Shown here: one piece after another, positions 1 to 15,568 of the stretch | Numbering within the stretch: the first letter of the stretch is position 1 | How the letters are laid out: each line of letters opens with the position of its first letter | Assembly: GCF_963676685.1 (NCBI RefSeq) | Contig: NC_092349.1 | Span: 63,518,924-63,538,097, forward strand | Direction: 5' to 3' | DNA length: 19,174 nucleotides | Origin: Mytilus edulis | Lineage: Eukaryota | The notes under the pieces: generated by a model | What the model saw: only the letters and a program-made list of their open reading frames with translations | What the model was told of the DNA's origin: nothing | Database searches by the model: none | Translations under genes and position numbers: made by a program

Positions 1-411
1 TGGATGATACTTGTTGAGTTTATTCACATAAAATATATTTTGTTGGTTTTGTAGTTCCCCCTTTTTATATGAAGAATTTCAAAGCCAATGAAGACAGCTT
101 TTTTTTTTATTATGCATAACTAATTTTAATGATGCATTTTTGTAAAATTTATTTTTGTCCACATTTCCGAATGTACAAGACATTCTTTTTTTTTTTAATA
201 TCCCTTTTATTTTGATATGAAAAAAACAAACTCAATCATTTCGAAGGCAAATTGTTAGGAAGATTCTATGAAGAAAAATCCCCAAAATTAAAAATAGTTT
301 GGAAGTACAAAACCGACGAAAACAAACAGTAATCCCGAATTACTTGTTACAAAGAAAAAAGATAGTAAAACCAAACTATACAGCGTGATTACCAAAAATA
401 CAAACCCAACC

Positions 412-440
412 AAAAAAAAAAAAAAAAAAAAAAAAAAAAA
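412..440 (+). repeat. A29 homopolymer. It may be the poly(A) tail of a retroposed element in the A-rich stretch at about 300-411.
   Basis: There are 29 consecutive A residues after an A-rich sequence. Confidence 0.5.
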
Positions 441-781
441 CAATATTGCATGAACATTTAAAAGTGGCGGAAAATAAGAAACAGGTATTAATAAACATGC
501 AAGCGTTAGCTATAGGTACATATATCACATAATGGATATGTTCTCAGACGTCTTAACTGTTTATGCATGGTTAATTTTGACACAATTGATCATATCTTGA
601 GTTAACTTATCATTACTCTTTTACTTAATAGCTTTTGGTGTTTTCCATTCATATAAATATGTATTACTATAACATTATACTTAATCATGAGGTGTTTGTC
701 ATTTAGCTTTTGCCTTACTTAGCTTCTTATAACAACTTGAAAAACTGGGATAACATTTGAAATTTAATGTTGCTTATTTAA

Positions 782-1425
782 GGTGGTACACTACATATAG
801 ATTCCTCTGTAAAAATCAGCTGAAGGTTTAAATCACATTCTTTTGTTAAGGAAATATTAAAAGTTTCTCATTGATCAAAAGTAATGTTTTTGTCAAACCG
901 TTTATTGAGAGCGTCACTGACGAGTATTTTGTAGACGAAACGCGCGTCTGGCGTATATACTCAATTTAGTACTGGTATCTATGATGAGTTTATTTATATA
1001 TCAAATGATAAAGTTTGTGGTTCGCGTATTATTAGATTTTTTTTTATATTTTTGTCAAAATTTAATGAATTAATTTTAGCCAATGTGTTTGGTATCCTTT
1101 TAAACGTCCTTTGGATAAACTATTTAGTAGTTAATCAATTGTAAATATAGCAATACCACAGGGTTGTCCCTTTTCCCGTCTATTATACTTCATGTATAGT
1201 ATGGAATAGCTACATATAATCAATAGTAACAACATCTAAAAGGTAAACGGTATTTAAACCAGAATTCTTGATAACATTTGAAATAAAATTAATTTGTGCC
1301 GTTTAAATGAACATTTGTTTTTGTAATTTATATTTTTGTCAAAGGGTCAAAGTAAAATATTTCGTACAAATTTGAGGAAAATTAAACGAGGTAAATTGAT
1401 TTTACTTAAAGCATTTGGTACCACC
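782..1425. mobile_element. Composite non-autonomous element bounded by short inverted termini (ggtggtac / gtaccacc) and flanked by TTAA on both sides. It contains repeat module X, the hammerhead unit at 909-955 and repeat module Y.
   Basis: TTAA is at 778-781 and again at 1426-1429. The termini are ggtggtacac at 782 and ggtaccacc at 1417-1425. Modules X (about 800-900) and Y (about 1290-1425) recur contiguously at 8850-9115 without the hammerhead unit. Confidence 0.35.
909..955 (+). ncRNA. Type-I hammerhead ribozyme motif of the minimal Penelope-like-element/retrozyme kind, with a 2-bp helix III closed by a palindromic GCGC loop. The catalytic core is intact.
   Basis: Helix I 5' strand aGCGUCA is at 910-916. 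The core CUGAcGA is at 917-923, with a C at the variable position 7. Helix II is gua-uuuugua-gac at 924-936. GAAAC is at 937-941, the GCGC loop at 942-945, and the GUC cleavage triplet at 946-948. The predicted cut is after 948. Helix I 3' strand UGGCGU at 949-954 pairs with GCGUCA. Confidence 0.55.
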
Positions 1426-1559
1426 TTAATATGCTTCGTTTGCATGTAGTATACATTAATTTGTGTCTTGTAGACACTACAAGGAATATCTATCTTACAA
1501 ATATAAATTAACTGTTAACAAAACTTTGAATTTTTTAAATATAAAGACTTTTCTACCTC

Positions 1560-1760
1560 AGGAATAGATTTCCTTAGCTGCATTTGTCAAAACTTTTGGG
1601 AATTTTTGGTCCTCAATGCTCTTCAACTTCATACTTTATTTGGCCTTTTGAATATTTGTTTATTCGAGCGTCACTAATGAGTCTTTTGTAGACGAAACGC
1701 GCGTCTGGCGTAAATATAAAATTTTAATCCTGATATCTATGATGAGTTTATTTATCAACA
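1560..1760 (+). repeat. Hammerhead-bearing short interspersed repeat unit (retrozyme or PLE-terminus-like), full copy.
   Basis: It shares extended similarity with 880-1010 and 11100-11235. Examples are tcctcaatgctcttcaacttcat against tcctctatgctcgtcaactttcat, and the downstream atctatgatgagtttatttat. Confidence 0.45.
1666..1712 (+). ncRNA. Second hammerhead copy from the same repeat family. Helix II is better paired (GUC/GAC), but the core reads CUaAUGA, a G5 to A change that probably inactivates it.
   Basis: The sequence gagcgtcaCTAATGAgtcttttgtagacGAAACgcgcGTCtggcgta is almost identical to the 909-955 copy. The surrounding repeat, about 1560-1760, also occurs in degenerate form at about 11100-11235. 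Confidence 0.45.
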
Positions 1761-2737
1761 AGTTGTACAGCAATTTTAAAATATGTGGTGTTGAGCTATT
1801 CGGCGATACTGACAGTTTTTATACTGACAAATTAACAGTACATTTAAGCCAAGCCAGTGCTACTTTCATTTTCGAAGTAACACGTCTTCTGATGGCTGAA
1901 AGTGTTTTGTCTATCAGCTCATAGACATATATTTTTTACGTGACCGTTATGTCATGAACGTTTTTTTATGCTTTCTCCTTGAAAATGGACCTGAGAATTA
2001 ACTTATAAGGAATGATTGTATTGATATTTCTATCTGTTCAAAATAACCTAGAAAATGTGGTGTAAACTTTAAAATAACCCGCTTTACGAGTTATTCCGTG
2101 TACATCTCATTTTTTATGTTTTTTCTTCATAGACAAAAGATGTATTACGATTCTTAAATGGCACACATTCTGGAATCGGTGTCACATAATATATAACAAT
2201 CTATCAAATATTTGAAATATGGGGTCCATCAATTTTAGTTTATAGTGCATTTTCTGAATTTAATGACCGTCATTTTTGAGACGGGCATATAATATCTTAA
2301 ATCCATCCATTAACTATATATATATTATAGTAAAATAGCACATTTCCTGAAGTGGTAATACATTCAATCTAATTTAAAACACATATGGAAAGTCCAAAGA
2401 AATTCATGAAATAGCAACAGTTACGCATATTATGAGTCGTTATTAATTTTTTGGGGGGTAAAAGTACATTCCACAAAGCTATATAATGGTATTACAGAAA
2501 CATATCTATTCATACTAGTTTACTAAGGATGACCTGCGATGTAACATTTTACCTATACATTGAATTAAAAATATGTCCAACTGAAATGTTTTACCCTGAT
2601 TAACATTTTGACCAAAACAAAATGGTGCAGCTATACAGAAGCTTACGTTACAGCAAAGACATGTAATGCGCATGCAAACTGAAAACGATTGATTTTATTT
2701 TTTATATATGTTAGCCATTACAAAATAACTCTAAAAA

Positions 2738-2790
2738 TAAAAATAAAAAAACCAACAACAACAAAAACAAAAACAACAAAAAAAAACCCA
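2738..2790 (+). repeat. Imperfect (AAC/AAAAC/AACAAA)n microsatellite.
   Basis: The sequence is aaataaaaataaaaaaaccaacaacaacaaaaacaaaaacaacaaaaaaaaaccc. Confidence 0.8.
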
Positions 2791-3487
2791 GATATACGTA
2801 ATTGTTGTATTGTAAAGAATAAGCTCAATTTTCTGATAAAGTGCAAATTGAAAAACATTTGTATTGTACTTTAAATGATTTATTTTTGATAAATGCTTAA
2901 ACGAGCGTGTATATAATACTAAGCTTTTAAGCGTTACTATGCTCTTTGTTTCTTACTTTCTTACCACTTTTGTCTTTATGGTACTCCAGTCTGCTTGATA
3001 ACCAGTAACACTCCTTAGTGTAAACATACTTTAGATTTCTTAGACGCTTTATACTTCTTTCTGCTTTAGACGGCTGATGTACATATGTGTCGTCAAAGGC
3101 TCATAGGTTAAACGCTTACAATATGTAACGCTTTTAGAATGTCCATTTGCTTATTTGGCAATTGTCTGCAATAACTGTAAGTTCAGAAATGATTTCACGC
3201 GCACATTTATAATCGTGATTCTTGCTTAAAGAACACAAATTGGTTTTAATCAATCAAATTTTAGAAAATGCAGCATACAAAAATGCTGTCACACTTAAAT
3301 ATGTTTTTTCTTATTTTTGCGTTTTAATCAAATTACAGTATTCACAATAATAAACTCGACCGAAAGACGTTCTGAATTTGCAGTAGACAAATGATGGCAA
3401 CAGCTTTGCTTGAGTCATAGCTTCTTAACACAAGTAAATAAAAAATCGAAGGCACTTCCTGTACAAAAAAATGTGTACTTTTTACAG

Positions 3488-3643
3488 GAAGTTGTGTATT
3501 ACGTCCTGTAGAAGGGGATACAACAAAATACAAAGTTTATTTAACCTCATCACGTGCTTCCGGTGAATTTAGATGCGCTGATGGAACACATTTTAATCAG
3601 GAAAAATGTTTATGTGATTGGCCACCAAGAAATAATAATTCAG
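3488..3643 (+). CDS. Internal coding exon, first resolved exon of the partial + strand gene. It encodes a cysteine-rich repeat: (G/R)SCVLRPVEGDTTKYKVYLTSSRASGEFRCADGTHFNQEKCLCDWPPRNNNS. This resembles the C-terminal half of a chitin-binding type-2 (peritrophin-A) domain.
   Basis: The acceptor is tgtactttttacAG at 3486-3487 and the donor is CAG|gtgata at 3644. Only one frame is open, starting at 3490 with two leading nucleotides. The motif C-x-x-G-x-x-F-N-x(3)-C-x-C-D-W-P matches the conserved CPxGLxFDx5CDWP end of ChtBD2 domains. The exon ends with one extra nucleotide, which is phase-compatible with the exon at 4174. Confidence 0.6.
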
Positions 3644-4173
3644 GTGATATATTATATTAACTATTAGAATAAGCGCCAAAAAATGAAAAAAATCTTGACC
3701 TAAATTTTATGTTCATCACCATCGTGATCGGATTTGTACATGGAAGAAATAAAGCAGCTGATATCATTTTATATCATAGAAATGGGAGCGAAATTAAAAA
3801 AAATCATCGTACGAAAATTTTAAGTTTTACCACCATCCGACGTGATCGGATATATAGGTTCAAATAAGATTGTCTCTTCGAAACTTACTTCAATCTTTCT
3901 ACTCTTCCTCCTCAATTGCTTGTTTTCCTTCTCTTTAATATTGATCTCTCCTGCTTTGTGCTTCTTTCGCCAACATTTAAAAAATATGAAACGTATGACT
4001 GAAAAGGGAACGTTAATATTGCTTAACAAAACATATTGGTTTATATAAGTATTAGGAATCTTGCTTTGAAGATATTTCACTACAATAAAGACAAACTACG
4101 TTTAACACCAACTTAAAATAAAGGTTTGCCCGAAATTGGTATGTGAACTGTCTTATTTATCTTTGAGCTACAG

Positions 4174-4314
4174 CTACTTTTCCAACAAGACCTAGACCAA
4201 CTACTGAACCTATCAATAGACCAGGAAATGGCAATACAAGACCGTTGGACCCAATAAGGCTTCCTGGAGAACAGAGACCTGGATTTAGACCATTTGAATC
4301 TACAACTAGAGGTC
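4174..4314 (+). CDS. Internal exon encoding a Pro/Thr/Arg-rich low-complexity linker: (A)TFPTRPRPTTEPINRPGNGNTRPLDPIRLPGEQRPGFRPFESTTRG.
   Basis: The acceptor is ctttgagctacAG at 4172-4173. A consensus donor GTAAGT lies at 4315-4320, with an alternative AG|GTCGTA at 4312. Only one of the three + frames is open. The entry and exit phases match the neighbouring exons. A - strand ORF 4113..4343 overlaps it but has no splice or domain support. Confidence 0.55.
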
Positions 4315-4384
4315 GTAAGTAACTGTTTAATAGCTATCCCCACTGTTTAATTCTTATACAGGTAACAGTAGCATCACGTTTTAA

Positions 4385-4591
4385 GGGGTAGACCTTGGTT
4401 CAGGGAGATGACTCTTAAAATCAGTTAAGCGTTTGTAAAAGTCAAGTTCATCAATGTATTTTAAGCATTTACCTGAAACAGATTGAAAATAATTTATGTA
4501 ACCTAGAAGCTTAGAATATATTTTTGAAAATGGTTGACACAAACGTACTGATGGTTTTAAGAGTTATTTCCCTTAACCTAGGTCTACCTCC
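4385..4591. mobile_element. MITE-like element of 207 bp with terminal inverted repeats of about 40 bp and TTAA on both flanks.
   Basis: The left end is ggggtagaccttggttcagggagatgactcttaaaatcag. The reverse complement of the right end is ggaggtagacctaggttaagggaaataactcttaaaaccatcag, about 85% identical. TTAA is at 4381-4384 and 4592-4595. There is no coding capacity. It sits in the intron between the exons at 4314 and 5977. Confidence 0.5.
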
Positions 4592-5689
4592 TTAAATTAC
4601 TGTAATTGAGAGAAGTTTACCAGTGGTTGATTGCACTTTAATTCATTTCCGTAAGTTTAATTGATAATCTTTGGGTAAAAAAAGGTAAAATGCCAAGAAG
4701 AATGATTGCAACTAACTTCATGTGCCTTTGGTATTTTCTGCCACTCATTTAGACTTCTTATAAACCTGTCTAGCAAAAACAAACCAACTAATTTTATTTA
4801 TCAATTTTGACTCCCATTAGGAAAAAGTTTACACAAGATTAAGATGATTTTGTTGATAATAATGTAAAGGGGAGAAAAACAGTAATCAAAACATAAAAAG
4901 GGAGATAACAACCCCAGTGTTTTCCCAAAAACAATAAGTGAAAAGAAAATACATTGATTAATTATGTCTGATTGCGGTTTTGTTGGCATTTACCTCACAC
5001 ATTTTCTGTGAAAAAAAAGAGAACACGGAGGTAAACAATGTGTTTCCTGCATTAACGAACGAGATAGAAAATAAAAGTACACACACTAGAATTTTGAAAA
5101 TACTTATAAAGCTATATAAAAGCGAAAATTTGTAACCCAAACCTTATTTTATGATAACTGTTATATGGAAAATGCGGAGAAGTAAGCAAGCTAACACATA
5201 ACTAGATACTTTTAAAAAACATGTGTCTCTTCTGTGTGCATTTCCAAAACTGAACACTGAAATAAAAAAATTACTAAGATATCCTCTTAACTGATCTTTT
5301 ATTGTAGATAATTTTTTATATGTCATGTTTCTCTTTATTATAACATTTGCCAAAATACAAATTTTGTCGATGTCTTATTACTGGTCATTTTTGCAGTTTA
5401 TAGTCATTCTTTTTCTAGTGTAGAATTTACAAAATAAACGAAAAAATAAGGATCGCCATCATAAAAGGAAAAACAACCTTTATAAGAAGTAGACTGACAG
5501 TATCGTCCATAAAATATATTTGCTGATCTTGTCCTACTACTTATTTTCACAGCATGTAATTTTACTTTATTTTCCATAGTTTTGGCTAAAATGAAAAATA
5601 ACAGGCTCTAAAGAATCCAAGTCGCTCAACTTTATTGATTTGCATCTGCAGCGGAGTTGTTTTTATATTTAGTTTACTCTATTTACTAT

Positions 5690-5880
5690 TTAATGCCGAT
5701 CACTTACTCATCCATAAAAGGGGGACGAAAGATACCAGAGGGACAGTCAAATTCCTAAATCGAAAATACACTGACAACGCCATGGCTAAAAATGAAAAGG
5801 ACAAACAGACAAACAATAGTACACATGACACAACATAGAAAACTAAAGAATAAACAACACGAACCCCACCAAAAACATAA
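5690..5880 (+). repeat. SINE-like interspersed repeat (ggggacgaaagataccagagggacagtcaaa...gacaaacagacaaacaatagtacacatgaca...), copy 1.
   Basis: It is closely related to 18712-18840 and partly to 9700-9760. Track ORF 5635..5838 lies inside it and is therefore not credible as a gene. Confidence 0.5.
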
Positions 5881-5976
5881 CCGTTTCGCCAAACTAAATA
5901 TAAAATTTTTAAAACAAAAAAATATTTAGCTTACTATAGTATTTTGTCTTGAGAATAAACTGAAGTTTCCTTTCAG

Positions 5977-6123
5977 CTTGTTTAACGTCACCAGACGCCG
6001 ACAGAAATTATTTCTCCCAATATATCCATGGATATGGAACAGTAAGACGACGTTGTCCAATTGGTACCCTTTACAATGACAGAGAATGTGGCTGTATTGA
6101 TTTAGCACCTGTAACAAGTATTT
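5977..6123 (+). CDS. Internal exon encoding the second cysteine-rich (ChtBD2-like) repeat: (P)CLTSPDADRNYFSQYIHGYGTVRRRCPIGTLYNDRECGCIDLAPVTSI.
   Basis: The acceptor is tttcctttcAG at 5975-5976 and the donor is T|GTAAGT at 6124. The repeat architecture is the same as in the exon at 3488: C-x24-26-C-x10-C-x-C with a conserved central Tyr. CPIGTLYNDRECGC aligns with CADGTHFNQEKCLC. The exon ends in phase 1, and the closing Cys (YC) is supplied by the next exon. Confidence 0.6.
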
Positions 6124-6738
6124 GTAAGTATTGATGAGTTGTAATACATATAAATGAACTATATGATCAACCTAGAGAACGGCTAAATGTTATTGATAAT
6201 TTGACTCGGTGAATTCGGATGACGGATGATACATACAAAGCAGGATGAGACGAGATACTTATCGTTTCAGCGCACCCGGTAGCGCTTCTTATGAAGTTTA
6301 TTTAATTTATATAATTTTGTTTGTAAGCCTAGGTGTATCGATACGAGATTTGAACTTCAGTTAAATACTGTTGGCTTAATTTTTCCAGAGCATTTCCTTG
6401 TATTGATGCCGCCATTTGGCTCTATGACAGGTGTTATCACTGAAGAGAACTCACTTGCTGTTTGTTATCATTATTATTATATCGACATTGAATCAGTAAT
6501 GCTCTGTTTTAATTTTTGCCAAAATAATGATGATATCCCGATGTATGTTTAAAAGCAAGTTGCATATGTCTGATATTGTTGTGTTGTAATATAATATAGA
6601 GATATGAATAAAAGGAGATGAGGCGTTTATTGAATGAGACATCATCAACCTAAAATAAATAGAACCAAAAAGACATATAGAAGTCACAGCGTAGACCTTG
6701 GCATATTGTATAGACATATCTTTTTGTAAACACGTTTT

Positions 6739-6958
6739 GTTGACCTCTAAAAGCGTCAGCTTATGTTGACCTCTAAAAGTGTCAGCTTATGTTGACCTCT
6801 AAAAGTGTCAGCTTATGTTGACCTCTAAAAATGTCAGCTTATGTTGACCTCTAAAAGTGTCAGCGTCAGCTTATGTTGACCTCTAAATGTGTCAGGTTAT
6901 GTTGACCTCTAAAAGTGTCAGCTTATGTTGACCTCTAAAAGAGTCAGCTTATGTTGAC
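6739..6958. repeat. Minisatellite with a 26-bp unit, gttgacctctaaaagtgtcagcttat, in about 8.5 tandem copies. It includes one 6-bp internal duplication and a few point variants.
   Basis: The tandem periodicity is directly visible. The array is intronic and ends about 90 bp upstream of the acceptor of the exon at 7049. Confidence 0.9.
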
Positions 6959-7048
6959 ATCGAGTTTCATTGACGTATTCCCACATCTCATTTAATAATT
7001 TTATATTTTGTTTGGTTTGAAATTCTTAAATCAGTTCTTCAATTTCAG

Positions 7049-7407
7049 ATTGCAGACCAGAAATATATTTAGACTTTGATAGTAAACCAATTATAGATAA
7101 TGGGGGCACAAACATTCCCATTGGTAATAATGGTCACGTGGATTCTGTTGCTAACGCCGGTAGATTTAACGGTATCGGACAGTTAACAATATGGATGTAT
7201 TCAAACATTGACTTTGGACAAAAATTGACAATAAGTTTGCGTTTCTACGATTTCCCAGGAGGCCCGGATGAACAAGTATTAGTTTCTAATTGTATGGATA
7301 ATGAATTAGGTGCTGTTGAAATTGCATTAGCGCCAAGAAATAAAGAAGTTATTTTTAGAGCAGATACAGTTGCTAGTGGACCTGCAGAAATCCGATTACC
7401 ATATAAG
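7049..7407 (+). CDS. Large internal exon starting (Y)CRPEIYLDFDSK... and running to ...AEIRLPYK. It encodes the N-terminal two thirds of a LamG/ConA-like jelly-roll domain.
   Basis: The acceptor is tcttcaatttcAG at 7047-7048 and the donor is AAG|GTAAGC at 7408. The frame matches track ORF 7138..7497, which carries on into the intron after the donor. The exon starts with two nucleotides that complete the TAT (Tyr) codon begun by the previous exon. The alternating hydrophobic beta-strand pattern (LTIWMYSNIDF, LTISLRFY, VEIALAP, VIFRADT) is typical of a ConA-like fold. Confidence 0.65.
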
Positions 7408-8849
7408 GTAAGCAAGCAACAAGAAGTTAGGGTCTACATATATTGGCAACTATTTTTAACATTCAGTGAAAGTTGCCATTTATGGGATTCTAGGTAATAA
7501 CAGAGGCAAATGTCAGGTTTGTTTTATGAAAATAATCTGAATAAGTGATCACACTAGAATTATGTAAAATAGCCTTAAAAGATGAAGGTTGCTTTTACTC
7601 AAATTTTAAATTAGAACGTTTATATATATTTATATTCATCATTATGCAAACTATTATAATAAAAAACGTAACCGAAATTAAAAAAAAAATGAATAAAGAC
7701 CTTGAACATACAAGCAGACAGCCCTATCACCATATCAATGTCAAACAGTGCGAAATTGCGAGCACACCTGTTGTTAGCAATGTGTCCTCAGAAAATTTCC
7801 CAAAAGTAGTTTTCGTCGGATTGACATGTATAGTGTTTTGCTATTTGATTGGGGACTTTCCGTTTTAAATTTTTCTCAGAGCTCAGTATTTTTGTGATTT
7901 TACTTTTTATATGTTGAGAGTGTTTGTTCTCATGTTCCTGACATTTCCCACAACACATACTCAAACCCTAATTTTAGTAAAGCCTTTGTTTTAAGTCATT
8001 ACCCTCCTAAATTTACAAGTTGTCGCATTTAAAACCTTAACCTTCTGACAATTACTAACATTTTCTTGTCAAATGTGTGCACTTCTGAAGCCTTTTTTTG
8101 TTAGGAAAAATGTAGTATTTTCCGAACAAATAGTTGAATAGGTTGTTTGATGTTTTTGTTGTTGTTTATACGAAGTCTATAGCTGTATTGTTTATATAGG
8201 GGTTTAAATTGAAATTTATAGAATAATAACATATGTTTTGTTGTTTTTTACGTAAATAACTTCTTGTTTATATGATAAGCCTGCATTGCTTTGTAAGTCA
8301 TAAACAATGTACGATAACTATTGCTTTAGTCATGTTGGTATCAATCATTTGTGGGTTTTTATATGTAACGTTCAGAGGAATCATTCATGGTCCGGTTTTC
8401 GTAGTTTTAATGACTGTCACCACCAAAACCGCTTTAACGTATTTAAATCAACACGAAATAAGAGCAATCATGAATTCTTCCCACGGTGTTATAATCGTAT
8501 CACTTGTATTTCTATTTGAATGATGTTATTTTAAATTTGTGATTTTACTGACTACCTCGGTAGCCAAAATTTAATTTCTGTCGCTTTTTAAGTTAACATT
8601 GTTTAACATTCTCAAAATAAGTCTACCCTGTTAATTTGTTTTGTTATCTTATAGATAATAAACCGTATGTGTTAAACTTGAAGTAAATTTTATTTGTAAA
8701 TTGCTTTATTTTTATTTCAGTCTCATGGCCTATGAAACGTTTAAAAAAAGTATAACAATAATTCTAAACTCTTATGTAAATTCACAAAGAGGAAGTCCAT
8801 AACAATTTACAAAATCAAACATTATTTATCAATTTAACAAGTGAAAACA

Positions 8850-9115
8850 ACTACAGGGAGATTACTCTGTAAAATCAGCTAAACTTTTTAATTACACTGT
8901 GTTGTAACGGAATATTAAGCTTCCCAATGATCAAAATTAGTATTTGTCAAACTGCTATATAACCAGTGTAATTTTTCTGATGAAATATTTGGTTCCAATT
9001 TTTTGAAATTTTTATATTTTTGTCAAAGGGTCAAAGTAAATACTTTGTCAAAATTTTAAGAAAATTAAACGAGCCAAATTAATTTTAGTTTAAGTGTTAG
9101 GTACCGCCTTAAATT
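8850..9115 (+). repeat. Second copy of repeat modules X and Y, contiguous here, ending ggtaccgccTTAA.
   Basis: ctctgtaaaatcagct...atgatcaaaa...tttgtcaaac aligns with 805-900. atatttttgtcaaagggtcaaagtaaa...gaaaattaaacgag...ggtaccgccttaa aligns with 1318-1429. Confidence 0.45.
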
Positions 9116-9699
9116 AAATAACTGTTTTTGTGATAAATGTCGTGCAGTTGAAGCATTGTTCTTGGTTACCCTTCACCAGAAACACTCAAACCAATACAAT
9201 GAAAGCCAGATATATATAAGTACTTCAAAACTTATTGAACTTGTAATGGCAAAAAAAAAGAAAGAAGATATTAAGTATGTACTTAGGTGAGGTTTTGGAA
9301 TTCGTGTAAAATTTTCGGACACCTTGGTTTTTTTCCATACAAAACAAGGTAAAATAGTTTGCCCCATAACACCTATTTATTTTTTCATATAAGACTAAAT
9401 AGCTCATGAAAGGTCATTTACCAAAATTTTAGAAGATTCTTAATTTTCTTTCATTTGTTTTGGGACCCAAATGATACCAATGCAAACATAAGGTAAAAGT
9501 CCGAGTCAGCCTTTTCCCGCCATATTTTAAATCTCAAATATCTCGAAAAGGAATTCCATGACCTATCAACATTTTTAGCTTATTTTGATCCTTGAAGAAT
9601 GCCCTACAAGCTAACAGTATCAATTTTAGATTCTTGATTTACTAATTTTCACCTAACCACACCTAATTCCTTAAGGTAGAAAAAAACTACACCATGGTC

Positions 9700-9760
9700 A
9701 AATGAAAAAGACAGACAAACAGACAATACTACACAGACGATTAAATTTGAGCTTCACTAT
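9700..9760 (+). repeat. Partial copy, 3' portion, of the same SINE-like family.
   Basis: catggtcaaatgaaaaagacagacaaacagacaatactacacagacg aligns with gccatggctaaaaatgaaaaggacaaacagacaaacaatagtacacatgac. Confidence 0.4.
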
Positions 9761-10021
9761 ACTCACAAAAACTCGGTGATTAACTCATCTGAACCCAAAG
9801 AGAAATGAATTCCGGTTTAACTAGCGATACTGGTTTGTAATTAACGGCAAGTTCACGTCTAAGTAAAATTTGCTCTCAACATATTATTCTTTGATACATA
9901 CATTATTTAGCCTTACAATACATGTAGATCAGACATCCATGAATCAAATGGTATAGTTTACACAAAAATGTTTGAAGCTAAATACAATTAATTATTGTTT
10001 TTTTTTTTTTTATGTAAACAG

Positions 10022-10112
10022 GATAAAGCATGGAAAAATGTAACATACGTATATGATGGAACAGCATTAAGGGCAAAGGTTGATGATGAAGAGCAGGCTG
10101 TTGCAATGAAAG
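10022..10112 (+). CDS. Internal exon DKAWKNVTYVYDGTALRAKVDDEEQAVAMK(G), the LamG-like core motif.
   Basis: The acceptor has a T14 polypyrimidine tract followed by atgtaaacAG at 10020-10021. The donor is AAAG|GTAAAA at 10113. It is in phase 0, matching the previous exon. W-x-x-V-x-x-x-Y-D-G-x(5)-V-D is the characteristic W-H-x-V-...-D-G-...-Y-V-D-G motif of laminin-G and pentraxin-type domains. Confidence 0.6.
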
Positions 10113-11099
10113 GTAAAATCAAAGTTTTATATTGTGTATAGAAATTATTAAGATTCTGTAGCAGATTAAAGAACTTAGTTCCAGTTTTATATATGATGAA
10201 ATAAGTCAAATCACATCAAAGTTTGAAGATGTCACTGTGTCACAGTGTACCTCGTGTAATATATCGACTAATCTTTATCTCTTCAATGTCAATATCAAAC
10301 TTATCTGATAGTTAGCAAATATCACGAGACACTGTTTTGTTTTGTATTCAATATATCTAAATAGGGTCTTATCATTATGTCATTATGCTAAATTTCTTTA
10401 TAATTTGTGTTATCTTTAAATGAAATCCAACATCAACTGCTTAATTTTCTATGGGTACAACTCTGTGTAGATGGATTTACATCATATACAGTAAACTTTC
10501 TATACACTAAATAATCGCACACACGATTTTTCTTGAGGTGGCCGTAGTCGAACTGGTGACCAGTAGATTATATATCCTTGTTAATACACTCAATGTCGCT
10601 ATGAAAACAAAGAAAGCAAAGACTTAGGTTGCTGATTAAAGCATTCGGTGAAAATTTGAAATACTCTACCGAATCGATTTCCAGTCTACAGTTGGATATA
10701 TTTATTGCGTACTGTGATGCTTTGCATGACATTTCTGTTTAACGAGAATAGTATTTCAAAAGAACACAATTCTTGTAAGTGATTGTCAATGCCGTTGTAA
10801 ATTTTCGGCCATGTCATATAACGTTGCTTTTTTGATAGTTAGCCATCACTTGACCTTTTTCTGTGTTTTAGGGTGTTAACTTTGATCTTATTATCAACAA
10901 AACACCAAAGGGTGTGAGATTGAATATGTGCACATTTATATGCAGACCAATACATTTTCAATAACAAGCAAAAAGCTGATGTTTTTAAATCTTTATATCA
11001 TAATAAAAGATTAACTGTTTTTCCAAATTTTGCATATTTCGGAATAATTTGATGTTCTACCCAATGAATAGATTATAGATGAATGTTGCAAAACATTTT

Positions 11100-11235
11100 T
11101 GAATTGTATGTCCTCTATGCTCGTCAACTTTCATTGACCTTTTTCAATTTGAGTGTCACTTATTAATTAAGCGAAGACAAAACGGGCGTCTAGCGTGCAT
11201 GGTATCGATAATGAGTAAACGATGATAACACATAT
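11100..11235 (+). repeat. Degenerate copy of the hammerhead-bearing repeat unit. The ribozyme core is destroyed.
   Basis: gagtgtcacttattaattaagcgaagacaaaacgggcgtctagcgtgcatggtatcgataatgagt aligns with 1664-1750, with many substitutions in CUGAUGA and GAAAC. Confidence 0.4.
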
Positions 11236-12029
11236 TCTAAAGATTAAAAAACCATTTATGAACATTGCTTTAAAATATGAAGCAAACTTTATGTCGATAG
11301 AAGGCAACAATAATTACTATGTTATATGCTAATGTACTTCAATTATAACAACTTTACCGCCCATCCTCCAATATAATGGTTATACAGCAACCATCAATCA
11401 GTAAACCAATCTTATAAAACAGTGGTATAACACCTGAACATTATATAAACTAAAATTATCAAAATGGACCCTAGTTGCCATAGGTTTAAAGTTTTTGGAA
11501 TATTTCGATTTTAAGACGTTTTTTTTATTGTTATTTACTTTATAGCCATGAGGTACTACGTTTAGATAGAATTATTTTTTCAATAAAACAATAGTAGGAA
11601 TTAAACAAAAATGACAAAAAAAAAAGAAAAAATATATTATTAAATGAAAATTAAATCTATCGCATACAAGATTGTGTAACATTGAAAATCAATCTAACTA
11701 AGAAAATACTAATCGAGATCATTCTTGATGTAACGGAAAACAAGAGGAAACATAAATAACAATTCCCATGGTATACTAACTTGTCCTACCTATAAACCAT
11801 CTCTAATGAAGCATAATGTGACAATTCATGTAAACTGTCGCTATATCATCCATCTTTATTCGACATTATAAGGTTTAAAGCTACATAATGGAATGTAATT
11901 AGATAGTCTAATACTTTTTTGTTTTTTTTACTATCATATCATGTATTACATTATAACATTAGTCAAGAATTTCGTTAGATGTTATCGAACTTTTCGCATT
12001 TTGGCCTTCTTACTATTTTGGTCTTATGT

Positions 12030-12062
12030 AGACCAAACACGCGTCTAACTTATAAGCCTGGT
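12030..12062 (+). repeat. 5'-truncated hammerhead-repeat fragment (helix II, cAAAC, acgc, GUC).
   Basis: gtcttatgtagaccaaacacgcgtctaac resembles gtcttttgtagacgaaacgcgcgtctggc. Confidence 0.3.
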
Positions 12063-12889
12063 ACATTTGACAACTATTAACAAACAAACAAAACACAATA
12101 TCAAAATACTCAGAATTAATAACTAGGATTATGATATAGTAAGAAAACGCCTTCCCTTTTATCTTATCTTAGTTAAAAGTAAAAATAACTAAAATACCAA
12201 ACTCCGAGGAAAACTCAGAACGAAAATTTTCTAGTCAAATCGCAAAATCAAAAGCTCTAAGACATCAAACGAACGGATAAAAACTGTCATATTCCTATCT
12301 AGGCATTTATGAAAATTGAAAATAGTTGATTATACAAGGATCTTTTAGCTTAAAACACCTGGTTTAATCCACTATTTTTTACTTTAAAAAAAATATGCAA
12401 CTGTCATACAATTGAGCTATCCTCACAATTGTTAGTAGACAGTTGCATTAAATTCCATTACATTTACAAAAATTGTGCGAACAAACAAATAGACATAAAA
12501 GGTACACATGTTAAAAATAGGGGTACAACAGTCAATATTTAATAACTTATTCGATTCGTGTTTCAAGTTTTTCTAGGATCTCTGAGTTAAATAAAGGCAC
12601 CAAAAAATATAAAAGGTGTATGACAGTACTAAATGAGCAAGGTTCATTCATTAAAAAACATTTAACAGACTGACATACTAATTTTTATTTGATCTCTTGA
12701 TCTTAAACTTAGAAATGATTATCTATTCGTTGTCATGATCTATCAAATTGACTTTTAAACATGTATTTTAAAACAGACATCATTTGCAAATGGACTTTTC
12801 AAATTTCAAATACACTTATAAAAGAGCAAAAACTATTTTTGGTGCTTTTGACACTTATGATTGCATGCTACGCCCGTCGCGTTTTCTAA

Positions 12890-13410
12890 GAATAAAATTC
12901 GATAACTTCTCAATGTCATATCAGAAATTTATAAAAATCCAAAGACATGTCAACTTGATAGATATAAATCAGTCACCAAAGTTTAATGAAAACTAGCACT
13001 TTGGGAATATTGTCCGAAAACTTGAAAATCACCCAATCGAATTGGAACTTACAGTAATAGATACGAACAATTCACCAAAATGTTAGGAAAACTGCCCAAA
13101 GCATTTTTGAGTTAATGTCCGAAAACTGGGAAATCTTGTTTCTTGTAATGAATAAAACCCCATAACTTGGAAACGTAAAATCTAAAATTTGTAAAAATTC
13201 AAAGGATGCTCATGTCAATATATATAAACAATTCATTATAGTTTCTTGCAAATTGGTGAAAGCGTATTTTGAGTTATTCTCAGAAAACTGGAAAATCCCT
13301 CTTTTTGTAATGAATATAAGCACAAAATCGAAAACATAAAAATCTAAAATTTATAAAAAACGAAAAGGAGCTATTGTCAATAGATATAAACAATTTGAAC
13401 GGTTTTACAC
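12890..13410. repeat. Satellite-like tandem array of three to four diverged units of roughly 110-190 bp (gtccgaaaactggaaaatc ... tgtaatgaataaaa ... aaaatctaaaatttgtaaaaa ... aaaggagct-atgtcaatatatataaacaatt).
   Basis: Blocks recur starting near 12905, 13012, 13118 and 13280. Track ORF 12784..12996 overlaps the first unit and is probably spurious. Confidence 0.55.
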
Positions 13411-14832
13411 TAGTATATTTTGGGGGCACTTTATAGCTTGCTGTTTGGTGTGAACCAAAGATCCATGTTGAAGACCGTACTTTGACCTATAATGGTTTAC
13501 TTTTATAAATTGTGAATTGGATGGAGAGTTGTCTCATTGGCAGTCATACATCATCTTCTTATATCTAAATAAAAAACATATAATCTTCGTTTTGTTCTCT
13601 TGAAAAGTTTTAATTTTAAAATAAAATAAAAAATGCTTCCCTTATTGACTTTTTCTGTGTTTTTTAATCAATGTCATTCACCTCCAAAACTTGAAATTTA
13701 ATCAACAACTTTTACAATATTTAATAAAAATATGAATATCAGTTTGAACTCAAATATGAAGATTTATTATTGAGTTACTTAAATTAACATACAAAAACAG
13801 AAATGACATATTACAATTATCTATTTTCTCTCTTATTGCTACATTATTTAAAAATAAAAATAAGGTATTGATACATACTAAATCCATTAAAATAGTTCTG
13901 GATTATTTTGGTTTGTATGTGATTTAGTATACCTGTTGAAAGAATTCTTGTGAACTTATTGTATGGTGTGAGTGCAAGACATAATTCAAAAGGGCATTTG
14001 TGCGTGATCCAATCTTTTATATATATATATATAGGTCTTTGGTCTGTTTATATTGCAAGTGAAAGTTATCTCTTTCGACGTGTGATGATAATGGCAATCA
14101 CTTCTGTTTTGCCAGTAAAAATCACATTAGCTTTTCTTGTATCTCTTTTTGTCTCATTGACAAATAATTTTTCTCATTATTCATAATGATATTTCTATCC
14201 AAGTAAATTCTGAGATACATGAATAATGTTATAATTTTGTTTTGGATACTGATTTTATCCATAAGAATATCAAGCGAGCCCGCTAGGCCGAGCTGATATT
14301 TGAACTGATGAAGTCATGTATAACAAAAATGCCATTATCCTTGTTATCGACAATTTGTCTTAACTATATATTTTTGTTCAGAATATGATGTAAAATCAAA
14401 AAATACATAAAACTACTTTTACGTAAAACGCAAAACGATGGGATCTTTATTCGGTTGTATGAATGAAGTCGCGTGCATTTTATTAACAATTAAAGCGGAT
14501 TAACATGTACACATGACCTTGCTGCTTTGATAAATTTCGTCATTGTCGTTTATGTTGGATTATCAAGACTGGTCAATGCTATTAAAACTTTAGGCAGTAA
14601 CATCAAAGTGGATGTACAAATTACCGATTAATACAAATATTTTGCTGGTTCTTTGAATATGTATTCAACACAATAAAACGAGAATATTATTCGTCTCTTT
14701 GTATTACAACTGTTAGAAAATCTGAATGTTTGTGTTGAGTGTCATTTCTTGTTTTTGTGTATATTTCATGCTACAAATGATCTAATAATCACTTATATCT
14801 ATAGTATTATCAAATGTTTGCTTGTCTTGCAG

Positions 14833-14909
14833 GACATTTAGATACACGAGCAGGGGGATTTGAGATAGGGATGTGTAATAGACGTGGATATGTTGGATAT
14901 ATTGATGAT
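14833..14909 (+). CDS. Internal exon (G)HLDTRAGGFEIGMCNRRGYVGYIDD.
   Basis: The acceptor is cttgtcttgcAG at 14831-14832 and the donor is GAT|GTAAGT at 14910. It has two leading nucleotides that complete the phase-1 end of the previous exon. F-x-G-x(7)-G-Y-V-G-Y-I-D-D fits the F-x-G-C-I-x-D-V motif at the C-terminal end of LamG-like domains. Confidence 0.6.
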
Positions 14910-15257
14910 GTAAGTTTGTACTCATAACATTTTAGAATCTGAAGGTTTATATTATTTCTAACATCTTGTAAACTCTTTTATTTGGCGGACTACATCTTTG
15001 GAATTACATGAAGTAGCTAGGCCGTACTGCAACGTGGAGAAGTATTCTCCGGTCTTTCAGAGCAGTTAATATACTTTGTATAGAAAAGGTCTTTGTTTAA
15101 ATGACAAAATTTGCATTGCACATAGTAATTGTGATAGGAATGACATTTTTGTTAACTTGATCTCATCCTAGGGTACAAAATTAATGAAATTTTATCGTTA
15201 TCGTTTTTAAAATTCATATATACACGCTTTCCTAATGCAAAAAACTCCATAACCATT

Positions 15258-15297
15258 AGTTTTTTTTTTTTTTGTTTTTTTTTGGGGGGGGGGGGGG
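15258..15297 (+). repeat. Compound T-run followed by a G14 homopolymer, intronic, about 165 bp upstream of the terminal exon acceptor.
   Basis: The sequence is ttagttttttttttttttgttttttttt then GGGGGGGGGGGGGG at 15284-15297. Confidence 0.8.
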
Positions 15298-15460
15298 TCA
15301 TTATCTGTTTTAATTGAGAAAATTTTTGTTCATAATCTGTTTTAATTGTTTTGTTGTTCTATTGTTTGAATCGTTCGTTTTTGTGTTTGTAAACTTTCCC
15401 GCATTTACATTTTTTATTCTTCTTGAAAATTGCTTACTAAACATATTTCTTTTTTTGCAG

Positions 15461-15568
15461 TTGAAGGTCCATCGTTGTGTTAATATAGACTATGTTATTG
15501 GAAATGGAAAAGGACCACTTAGTCCTTATGATGCTAGAGACTCTAACCTAGATATTGGTGGACCTTGA
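15461..15568 (+). CDS. Terminal coding exon LKVHRCVNIDYVIGNGKGPLSPYDARDSNLDIGGP* with a TGA stop at 15566-15568.
   Basis: The acceptor is tttctttttttgcAG at 15459-15460. It is in phase 0 and in frame with the tail of track ORF 15314..15568. Candidate polyadenylation signals ATTAAA and AATAAA lie at 15757-15765. Confidence 0.55.
   Translation: MKVHRCVNIDYVIGNGKGPLSPYDARDSNLDIGGP

Follow-up and report, generated by a model that had tools for sequence, protein, structure and literature searches.

The shell matrix protein-like gene and its coding exons

The window, that is the whole stretch of DNA analysed here, comprises 19,174 nucleotides of Mytilus edulis (assembly GCF_963676685.1, contig NC_092349.1, positions 63,518,924 to 63,538,097 of the forward strand) with a base composition of 30% G+C. 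It contains all the coding exons except the first of the M. edulis 'shell matrix protein-like' gene, which is located on the + strand and has a genomic span of 16 kb. A previous description made from the letters alone (the sequence-only reading) had proposed at this place a partial gene of seven spliced exons, encoding Cys repeats similar to chitin-binding type-2 (ChtBD2) domains, a Pro-rich linker and a C-terminal laminin G (LG)/ConA-like domain, in an arrangement resembling that of the molluscan proteins Pif and BMSP. Each of these exons is preceded by AG and followed by GT, apart from the last one that ends at the stop codon. Once joined they represent 1079 nucleotides, open from offset 2 and free of in-frame stops, that encode 358 amino acids followed by a TGA at 15566-15568; the open frame and its stop are those proposed, and the 359 residues counted initially are codons including the stop. 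The translation corresponds, with 0 mismatches in 358 positions, to the residues 26-383 of the RefSeq protein XP_071180021.1 ('shell matrix protein-like isoform X2', 383 amino acids), and the seven-exon model is thereby upheld. A search of the protein collection recovered the M. edulis protein P0001 (385 amino acids, 99% identity, 100% coverage), whose tblastn alignment onto the window displays 100% amino-acid identity at every exon. The orthologues are identical at 89% in M. coruscus, 75% in a transcript of another mytilid, 56% in Pecten, 49% in unionids and 40% in Saccostrea. An identical protein is already present in the annotation of this gene, and the family too has been described before, so that neither is new.

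The splice junctions were compared with a contig of 1294 nucleotides from another mytilid (public run SRR26950820), which carries an uninterrupted orthologous open reading frame of 380 amino acids. Because this frame is uninterrupted while the genomic gene spans 16 kb, the contig is evidently a spliced transcript. It aligns with the window in six blocks whose ends fall at the proposed exon edges. Four of the six proposed junctions are matched, two of them exactly (6123|7049 and 14909|15461) and two to within a few bases (7407/10022 and 10112/14833). The blocks 3490-3624 and from 5979 onwards reveal that a single transcript contains both Cys-repeat exons in spliced form; they end before the junctions 3643/4174 and 4314/5977, which the transcript does not reach, and the divergent linker exon 4174-4314 is unaligned. 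The window was also compared with the locus CAJPWZ010000098.1 (named L001 hereafter), which represents another M. edulis haplotype or assembly. The exons are identical at 99.7% (1082 of 1085 nucleotides), versus 90-98% for the aligned introns, where many indels are present. The conservation of exons over introns, the match with the transcript and the identity of the protein therefore confirm the gene model far beyond chance. The model could in principle be a pseudogene, or a frame open by chance between GT and AG sites. Apart from its construction by eye, nothing favours this reading, which is refuted by the translation identical to an annotated protein, by the 40-89% identity across bivalve orders, by exons conserved well above introns and by the spliced transcript of a related species; we regard it as vanishingly improbable. 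The reading of exons by eye had thus yielded a correct eukaryotic gene model.

The start of the linker exon had been placed at 4174. Two tandem 3' acceptors, 6 nucleotides apart, are found there: the AG at 4166-4167 gives a start at 4168 and the isoform X1 (385 amino acids), and the AG at 4172-4173 gives a start at 4174 and the isoform X2 (383 amino acids), the difference being the two linker residues Thr-Ala. The proposed start is consequently that of X2, and the acceptor of X1 is an alternative to it.

The full-length proteins start with MQGLFLSVCIVISSYLHTCI(S/A)QRM-R-SCVLRP. No signal-peptide exon was detected inside the window in six frames, with up to 8 substitutions allowed. In L001, the exon 1 is localized at 10001-10073 and the window position 14 corresponds to position 10361, so that this exon precedes the first position of the window by about 0.3 kb. 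It consists of 24 codons plus one base and encodes the signal peptide only (M...QRM). The sole missing coding exon is therefore this 24-residue signal-peptide exon and the gene is otherwise complete, contrary to the proposal of a partial gene that could carry a VWA domain upstream. No Pfam match to VWA was obtained on the 358-residue product, and in the full-length proteins P0001 and P0191 the signal peptide is followed directly by the Cys repeat 1. A VWA or any other upstream domain is absent from the gene.

These data bear on the possibility that a true Pif/BMSP gene is present, with only its 3' part inside the window and its VWA-encoding exons and more upstream. The homology of the repeat and LG module with the C-terminal module of VWA-CBM14-LG proteins, and the existence of a gene with a faint VWA match, which the M. 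edulis assembly places about 9 kb downstream in the opposite orientation, are the points in its favour. They are opposed by the independent annotations of M. edulis, M. galloprovincialis, M. trossulus, M. californianus and M. coruscus and by transcript-derived orthologues (Perna and other bivalves), which are all of 331-405 amino acids and in all of which the Cys repeat 1 comes immediately after the signal peptide, by the upstream exon that encodes only M...QRM, by an LG domain devoid of low-complexity insert and by a mature isoelectric point of 7.1. This very improbable reading is effectively refuted.

The surroundings of the gene were observed in L001. A diverged second signal-peptide exon, 83% identical to the residues 2-23, occurs at 7747-7815, about 2.2 kb upstream of exon 1, and this copy may have arisen by duplication of the first exon or may serve as an alternative to it. 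The downstream neighbour gene occupies the positions 35356-36190 on the minus strand, about 5.5 kb past the 3' end of the window, and encodes a product of 563 amino acids with the faint VWA match; LG-like sequence was not found in its terminal exon. In M. trossulus, the VWA...LG protein XP_063396371.1 and the orthologue of the window gene are encoded on the same chromosome, which recalls the published Pif/LamG3 gene cluster.

Modules of the protein, isoforms and other features of the window

The mature protein has a mass of about 40 kDa and an isoelectric point of 7.1 (5.2 for the LG domain). Of its 12 cysteines, each repeat holds four, and the remaining four are within the C-terminal domain or at its border. 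The two repeats display the pattern C-x26/24-C-(A/P)-x-G-T-x-(F/Y)-N-x3-C-x-C, as described initially. Hidden Markov models (HMMs) built from either repeat detect both of them, and the two repeats are therefore homologous. Repeat 1 matches the Pfam family CBM_14 with 23.3 bits for a cutoff of 22.1, at the model positions 25-48 of 53 only. Among 98 diverse homologous repeats collected from the relatives, 17 match CBM_14 by themselves, and the only other match is a marginal one to DUF5401 (E 0.005). The family consensus C-x(24-27)-C-(A/P)-x-G-T-x-(F/Y)-x4-C-x-C comprises four cysteines and not the six that characterize CBM14/ChtBD2 domains (PF01607, SM00494); the spacing is C-x26-C-x10-C-x-C in repeat 1 and C-x24-C-x10-C-x-C in repeat 2. 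An AlphaFold model of repeat 2, predicted from the family alignment of repeats, has a mean confidence (pLDDT) of 84. When this model was compared with the PDB by Foldseek, every match with E below 1 was of CBM14 type (E 0.03-0.7), including Avr4, the CBM14 of human chitotriosidase, Aplysia EHEP, Der p 23 and Blo t 12. Modest scores are expected from the size of the domain, which is only about 45 residues. Against the PDB sequences, the family profile recovered only an insect chitinase, whose CBM14 matched without significance (E 0.54). Pfam and the fold search agree, and the predicted structure indicates that the Cys repeats adopt a real reduced CBM14 fold rather than a truncated domain. The ChtBD2-like assignment is thus retained. 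The first three cysteines, reported as not visible, are missing as a feature of the family of reduced four-Cys modules and not because of unresolved exons.

The linker between the two repeats is rich in Pro (20%), as announced, and also in Arg (18%), Thr (14%) and Asn (12%). It is disordered in the AlphaFold model (pLDDT 30-35). Among the mytilids (P0002, P0004 and the Perna orthologue were compared), the linker varies strongly in length and repeat content while the flanking modules are highly conserved: extra TRPRP/RPIKT-like units are present in M. coruscus and the linker is 14 residues longer in Perna. The relatives P0017, P0019, P0022 and P0154 are separate proteins composed largely of arrays of 8-15 copies of the reduced four-Cys repeat, and in P0017, P0019 and P0022 the top-scoring stretches of the profile are located in the repeat region. 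The reduced repeat constitutes an independent mobile module.

The last four exons account for a domain with a length of about 180 residues and for a Gly/Asp/Asn tail of 28 residues; an acidic tail is absent, in agreement with what had been noticed. The landmarks W-K-N-V-T...Y-D-G and G-Y-V-G-Y-I-D-D are present as described. The Pfam family Laminin_G_3 (PF13385) matches the domain with 21.0 bits (E 4e-4), under its cutoff of 27.6; the homologues P0027 (28.3 bits) and P0096 (31.4 bits) are above this cutoff, and PF13385 is precomputed for P0007, P0008, P0010 and P0012. In the full-length AlphaFold model obtained from an alignment of 12 sequences (overall pLDDT 61.6), the LG part is all-beta with pLDDT values of 78-95 over the residues 212-357. 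Foldseek gave 564 PDB matches at E <= 1e-3, of which the best, at E about 1e-7, are NELL, the LG4-5 of laminin alpha1/alpha2, neurexin, agrin, the LG3 of perlecan, pentraxins and the Hc domains of clostridial toxins. The domain is continuous over the residues 176-357 and has no low-complexity or acidic insert. The C-terminal domain is therefore an uninterrupted LamG/ConA-like jelly-roll, as the sequence-only reading had it. The N-V-T sequon of the motif W-K-N-V-T (10022-10112) is invariant in the 12 aligned bivalve orthologues. It may correspond to a conserved site of N-glycosylation, or else play a structural part in the LG domain.

The RefSeq isoforms have lengths of 385, 383 and 333 amino acids in M. 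edulis and 331 amino acids in M. galloprovincialis. The exons 3488-3643, 4168/4174-4314 and 5977-6123 have lengths that are multiples of three, are flanked on both sides by phase-1 introns and encode one module each. The exon of Cys repeat 1 is skipped in the Mytilus RefSeq isoforms X3/X4, and repeat 2 is absent from the Saccostrea isoform X2. Since each repeat corresponds to a phase 1-1 cassette exon and isoforms drop either of them, regulated skipping could tune the number of chitin-binding modules. The wider proposal, in which the reduced four-Cys repeat would be a distinct module uncurated by Pfam, fused to LG as a conserved molluscan composite unit with exon skipping setting the module number, is tentative and in our opinion rather doubtful. 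If the skipping were regulated, the gene would constitute a small model for the tuning of chitin-attachment valency in shell matrix assembly. The old M. galloprovincialis model P0003 omits the exons 10022-10112 and 14833-14909 (168 nucleotides, in frame); this skip is probably an annotation artefact, because it would gut the LG domain.

Table 1. Coordinates of the gene features in the window (Cys: cysteine; LG: laminin G; X1, X2: RefSeq isoforms).
Feature	Position	Strand	Remarks
Intron 1, 3' part	1..3487	+	MQGLFLSVCIVISSYLHTCISQRM unmatched in any frame; window 14 = L001 10361
Coding exon 2, Cys repeat 1 (C-x26-C-x10-C-x-C-D-W-P)	3488..3643	+	phase 1-1 cassette; CBM_14 23.3 bits
Coding exon 3, Pro/Arg/Thr/Asn-rich linker	4168..4314	+	acceptors 4168 (X1) and 4174 (X2, sequence-only reading); phase 1-1
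Coding exon 4, Cys repeat 2, reduced CBM14-like module	5977..6123	+	phase 1-1; AlphaFold pLDDT 84
Coding exon 5, first ~120 residues of the LamG/ConA-like jelly-roll	7049..7407	+	starts C-R-P-E-I
Coding exon 6, LG domain	10022..10112	+	D-K-A-W-K-N-V-T-Y-V-Y-D-G...
Coding exon 7, LG domain	14833..14909	+	...G-F-E-I-G-M-C-N-R-R-G-Y-V-G-Y-I-D-D
Last coding exon, final LG strand and 28-residue Gly/Asp/Asn tail	15461..15568	+	L-K-V-H-R-C; TGA 15566-15568
Tryptic peptides of the window protein (examples)			NYFSQYIHGYGTVR, AGGFEIGMCNR, ADTVASGPAEIR

The introns and flanks yielded neither a second gene nor a transposon protein. The Pfam search of the ten longest open reading frames outside the exons gave no match, and neither the tRNA scan of the window nor Rfam at gathering thresholds gave any hit. 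A minisatellite at 6738-6958, in the intron 6123-7049, is composed of about 8 copies of the 26-bp unit TGTTGACCTCTAAAAGTGTCAGCTTA with 90% matches, and a 162-bp unit is tandemly duplicated at 13098-13395 (1.8 copies, 80% matches). The segment 13394-13566 (about 170 bp) that adjoins this duplication has two further copies at L001 31188-31358 and 3146-3240, and is therefore an interspersed repeat of the M. edulis locus. Short interspersed repeat families are also found in the introns at 909-967, 1666-1724 and 11151-11209, at 1355-1429 and 9038-9112, and at 8844-9090; this last segment matches L001 1190-939 on the opposite strand. One intronic family, GAGCGTCACTGACGAG...GACGAAACGCGCGTCTGGCGTA, has three copies with 61-100% identity to the reference copy.

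Family and proposed role

The profile search, performed over 1.84 billion representative sequences, recovered 750 relatives at E <= 1e-3, of which 231 reach E <= 1e-10. Parts of the architecture in which the repeat is fused to LG are present in these 750 matches. The named relatives are all molluscan (bivalves, gastropods and octopus). Many are long proteins that bear the repeat and LG module at their extreme C-terminus. Some have an N-terminal VWA, such as M. trossulus XP_063396371.1 and M. coruscus AKS48157.1 (VWA, CBM_14 and the module), others have canonical CBM_14 domains and no VWA, and a few are the arrays of 8-15 repeats. BMSP itself was not identified among the top profile matches. 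Four relatives of 2161-2374 amino acids, considered as BMSP candidates (BMSP having four VWA), were rejected: they contain CBM_14 and LG but no VWA.

The window protein is 32% identical to the C-terminus of AKS48157.1 over 246 amino acids (E 6e-35). The consensus of the C-terminal LG of Pif/BMSP (Suzuki 2013), in the form quoted in PMC11291548, matches the window protein with E 7e-9. For the consensus of the N-terminal LG of Pif/BMSP, BLASTP gave no significant match; the region aligns by eye and lies inside the 246-residue alignment with AKS48157.1. From these alignments, the homology between the repeat 2 and LG module and the C-terminal module of the VWA-CBM14-LG proteins of the Pif/BMSP family is genuine. 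The Pif/BMSP-like label holds for this module and not for the whole protein, which has neither VWA nor LG insert. In the terms of Bai et al. 2023 (PMC10543319), LamG3 designates chitin-binding (CB) plus LG proteins without VWA, Pif homologues derived from an ancestral VWA-CB-LG gene, some of which are shell matrix proteins; the name is used somewhat differently by Setiamarga/Yoshida et al. (PMC9635652). By its architecture, with CB modules that are reduced four-Cys repeats and not canonical six-Cys CBM_14, the gene belongs to this VWA-less CB+LG class ('LamG3' or 'shell matrix protein-like'). The label is hence corrected from a partial Pif/BMSP gene to a complete gene of this class, and the half-ChtBD2 cysteine pattern is documented as a real reduced CBM14 fold, as predicted above. 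As the gene, the protein sequence and the family are already in public databases and papers, this correction matters little beyond annotation.

The best explanation of the gene, which we consider quite probable, is a secreted VWA-less CB+LG shell-matrix protein acting on the chitin framework. The gene model, the folds of the domains, the homology and the presence of the orthologue in nacre are established; chitin binding, a ligand of the LG domain and a shell role in M. edulis are what we infer. The protein would be secreted by the mantle epithelium, through its signal peptide, into the extrapallial space. There, the reduced CBM14 modules, both stabilised by disulfides, would anchor the protein to the chitin or glycans that form the framework of the shell matrix, while the flexible, extended and probably glycosylated Pro/Thr/Arg linker would keep them apart, and the LG jelly-roll may bind a further component of the matrix through a surface of its own. 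In this way it would act as a cross-linker or adaptor of the framework rather than as an acidic crystal-binding nucleator. The CaCO3 binding of Pif80 and BMSP100 comes from an acidic insert; since the window protein is near-neutral and has no such insert, an adaptor is likelier than a nucleator of crystals.

Several observations weigh against this shell-matrix function. The Pfam support is marginal, since CBM_14 covers 24 of its 53 model positions in repeat 1, repeat 2 alone has no Pfam match at all, and the LG domain is under the Laminin_G_3 cutoff. Repeat 2 lacks the Trp of the C-D-W-P motif, which makes chitin binding uncertain. The shell link comes from the Perna viridis orthologue Unigene2638, a mantle transcriptome sequence for which mass spectrometry of nacre found 3 peptides, ADTLSNGPAELR, AGGFEIGMCNR and NYFTQYIHGYGTVR (PMC6641155). 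The three nacre peptides are supportive and not decisive, because the same shell proteome also includes many intracellular proteins (PMC6641155). Finally, mantle enrichment is reported to be absent for many LamG3/Pif genes, and biomineralisation may not have been their ancestral role (PMC10543319).

The same points can be read as those of a secreted CB+LG matrix or lectin-like protein whose main role is outside the shell, in the chitinous matrices of periostracum, byssus or gut, or in immune glycan recognition, the detection in nacre being incidental. An ancestral function that was probably not biomineralisation in a family whose genes are often not mantle-enriched (PMC10543319), the presence of the family in the shell-less octopus, the obvious cellular contaminants of the Perna shell proteome and a neutral protein without acidic or low-complexity mineral-binding regions are all consistent with such a role. 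It accounts less well for an orthologue that comes from a mantle transcriptome with three nacre peptides, and for the fact that the closest characterised relatives, P86860 and AKS48157.1, are recurrent components of shell proteomes. We consider a mainly non-shell role unlikely, and the secreted shell-matrix protein is retained as the preferred explanation.

Comparison with known shell proteins

The repeats of the window protein resemble the CBM14/ChtBD2 peritrophin-A domains, of which Der p 23 and Blo t 12 are reduced forms, and differ from them by their four cysteines (C-x24-26-C-x10-C-x-C) instead of six; most repeats of the family score under the Pfam threshold of CBM_14. With the Pif/BMSP proteins (Pinctada Pif177, Mytilus BMSP and the M. 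coruscus 'sushi-like protein' AKS48157.1), the window protein shares a CBM14-like repeat followed by a C-terminal LG module. Unlike them, it has no VWA, its LG domain is not split by a low-complexity or acidic insert, a long acidic region for CaCO3 binding is absent, and its size is 383-385 amino acids versus about 840 to more than 2000.

The molluscan LamG3 proteins display the same organization as the window protein, with a signal peptide, one or several modules of chitin-binding type, a C-terminal ConA-like/Laminin_G_3 domain and no VWA. Shell proteins combining CB and ConA-like domains have been reported in Tridacna (PMC8217771) and Haliotis (PMC6003135). The literature found under the other RefSeq name, 'asparagine-rich protein', consisted only of unrelated text on Haliotis GAAP. 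The RefSeq name 'shell matrix protein-like' evidently derives from the M. californianus 'Shell matrix protein' of UniProt (P86860), in which a reduced Cys repeat is likewise followed directly by a Laminin_G_3-type domain. P86860 has been detected by mass spectrometry in the nacre, myostracum and fibrous prism of M. galloprovincialis (PMC4517812). As it is only 27% identical to the window protein (over 226 amino acids, E 3e-17), P86860 is a paralogue; as printed, it has a single Cys repeat, without the C-x-C pair, and no Pro-rich linker.

The true orthologue described in a shell is the Perna viridis Unigene2638. It belongs to a different genus and has a longer Pro-rich linker, and it shows 73% identity over the full length, the same architecture and the same cysteine pattern as the M. 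edulis protein.

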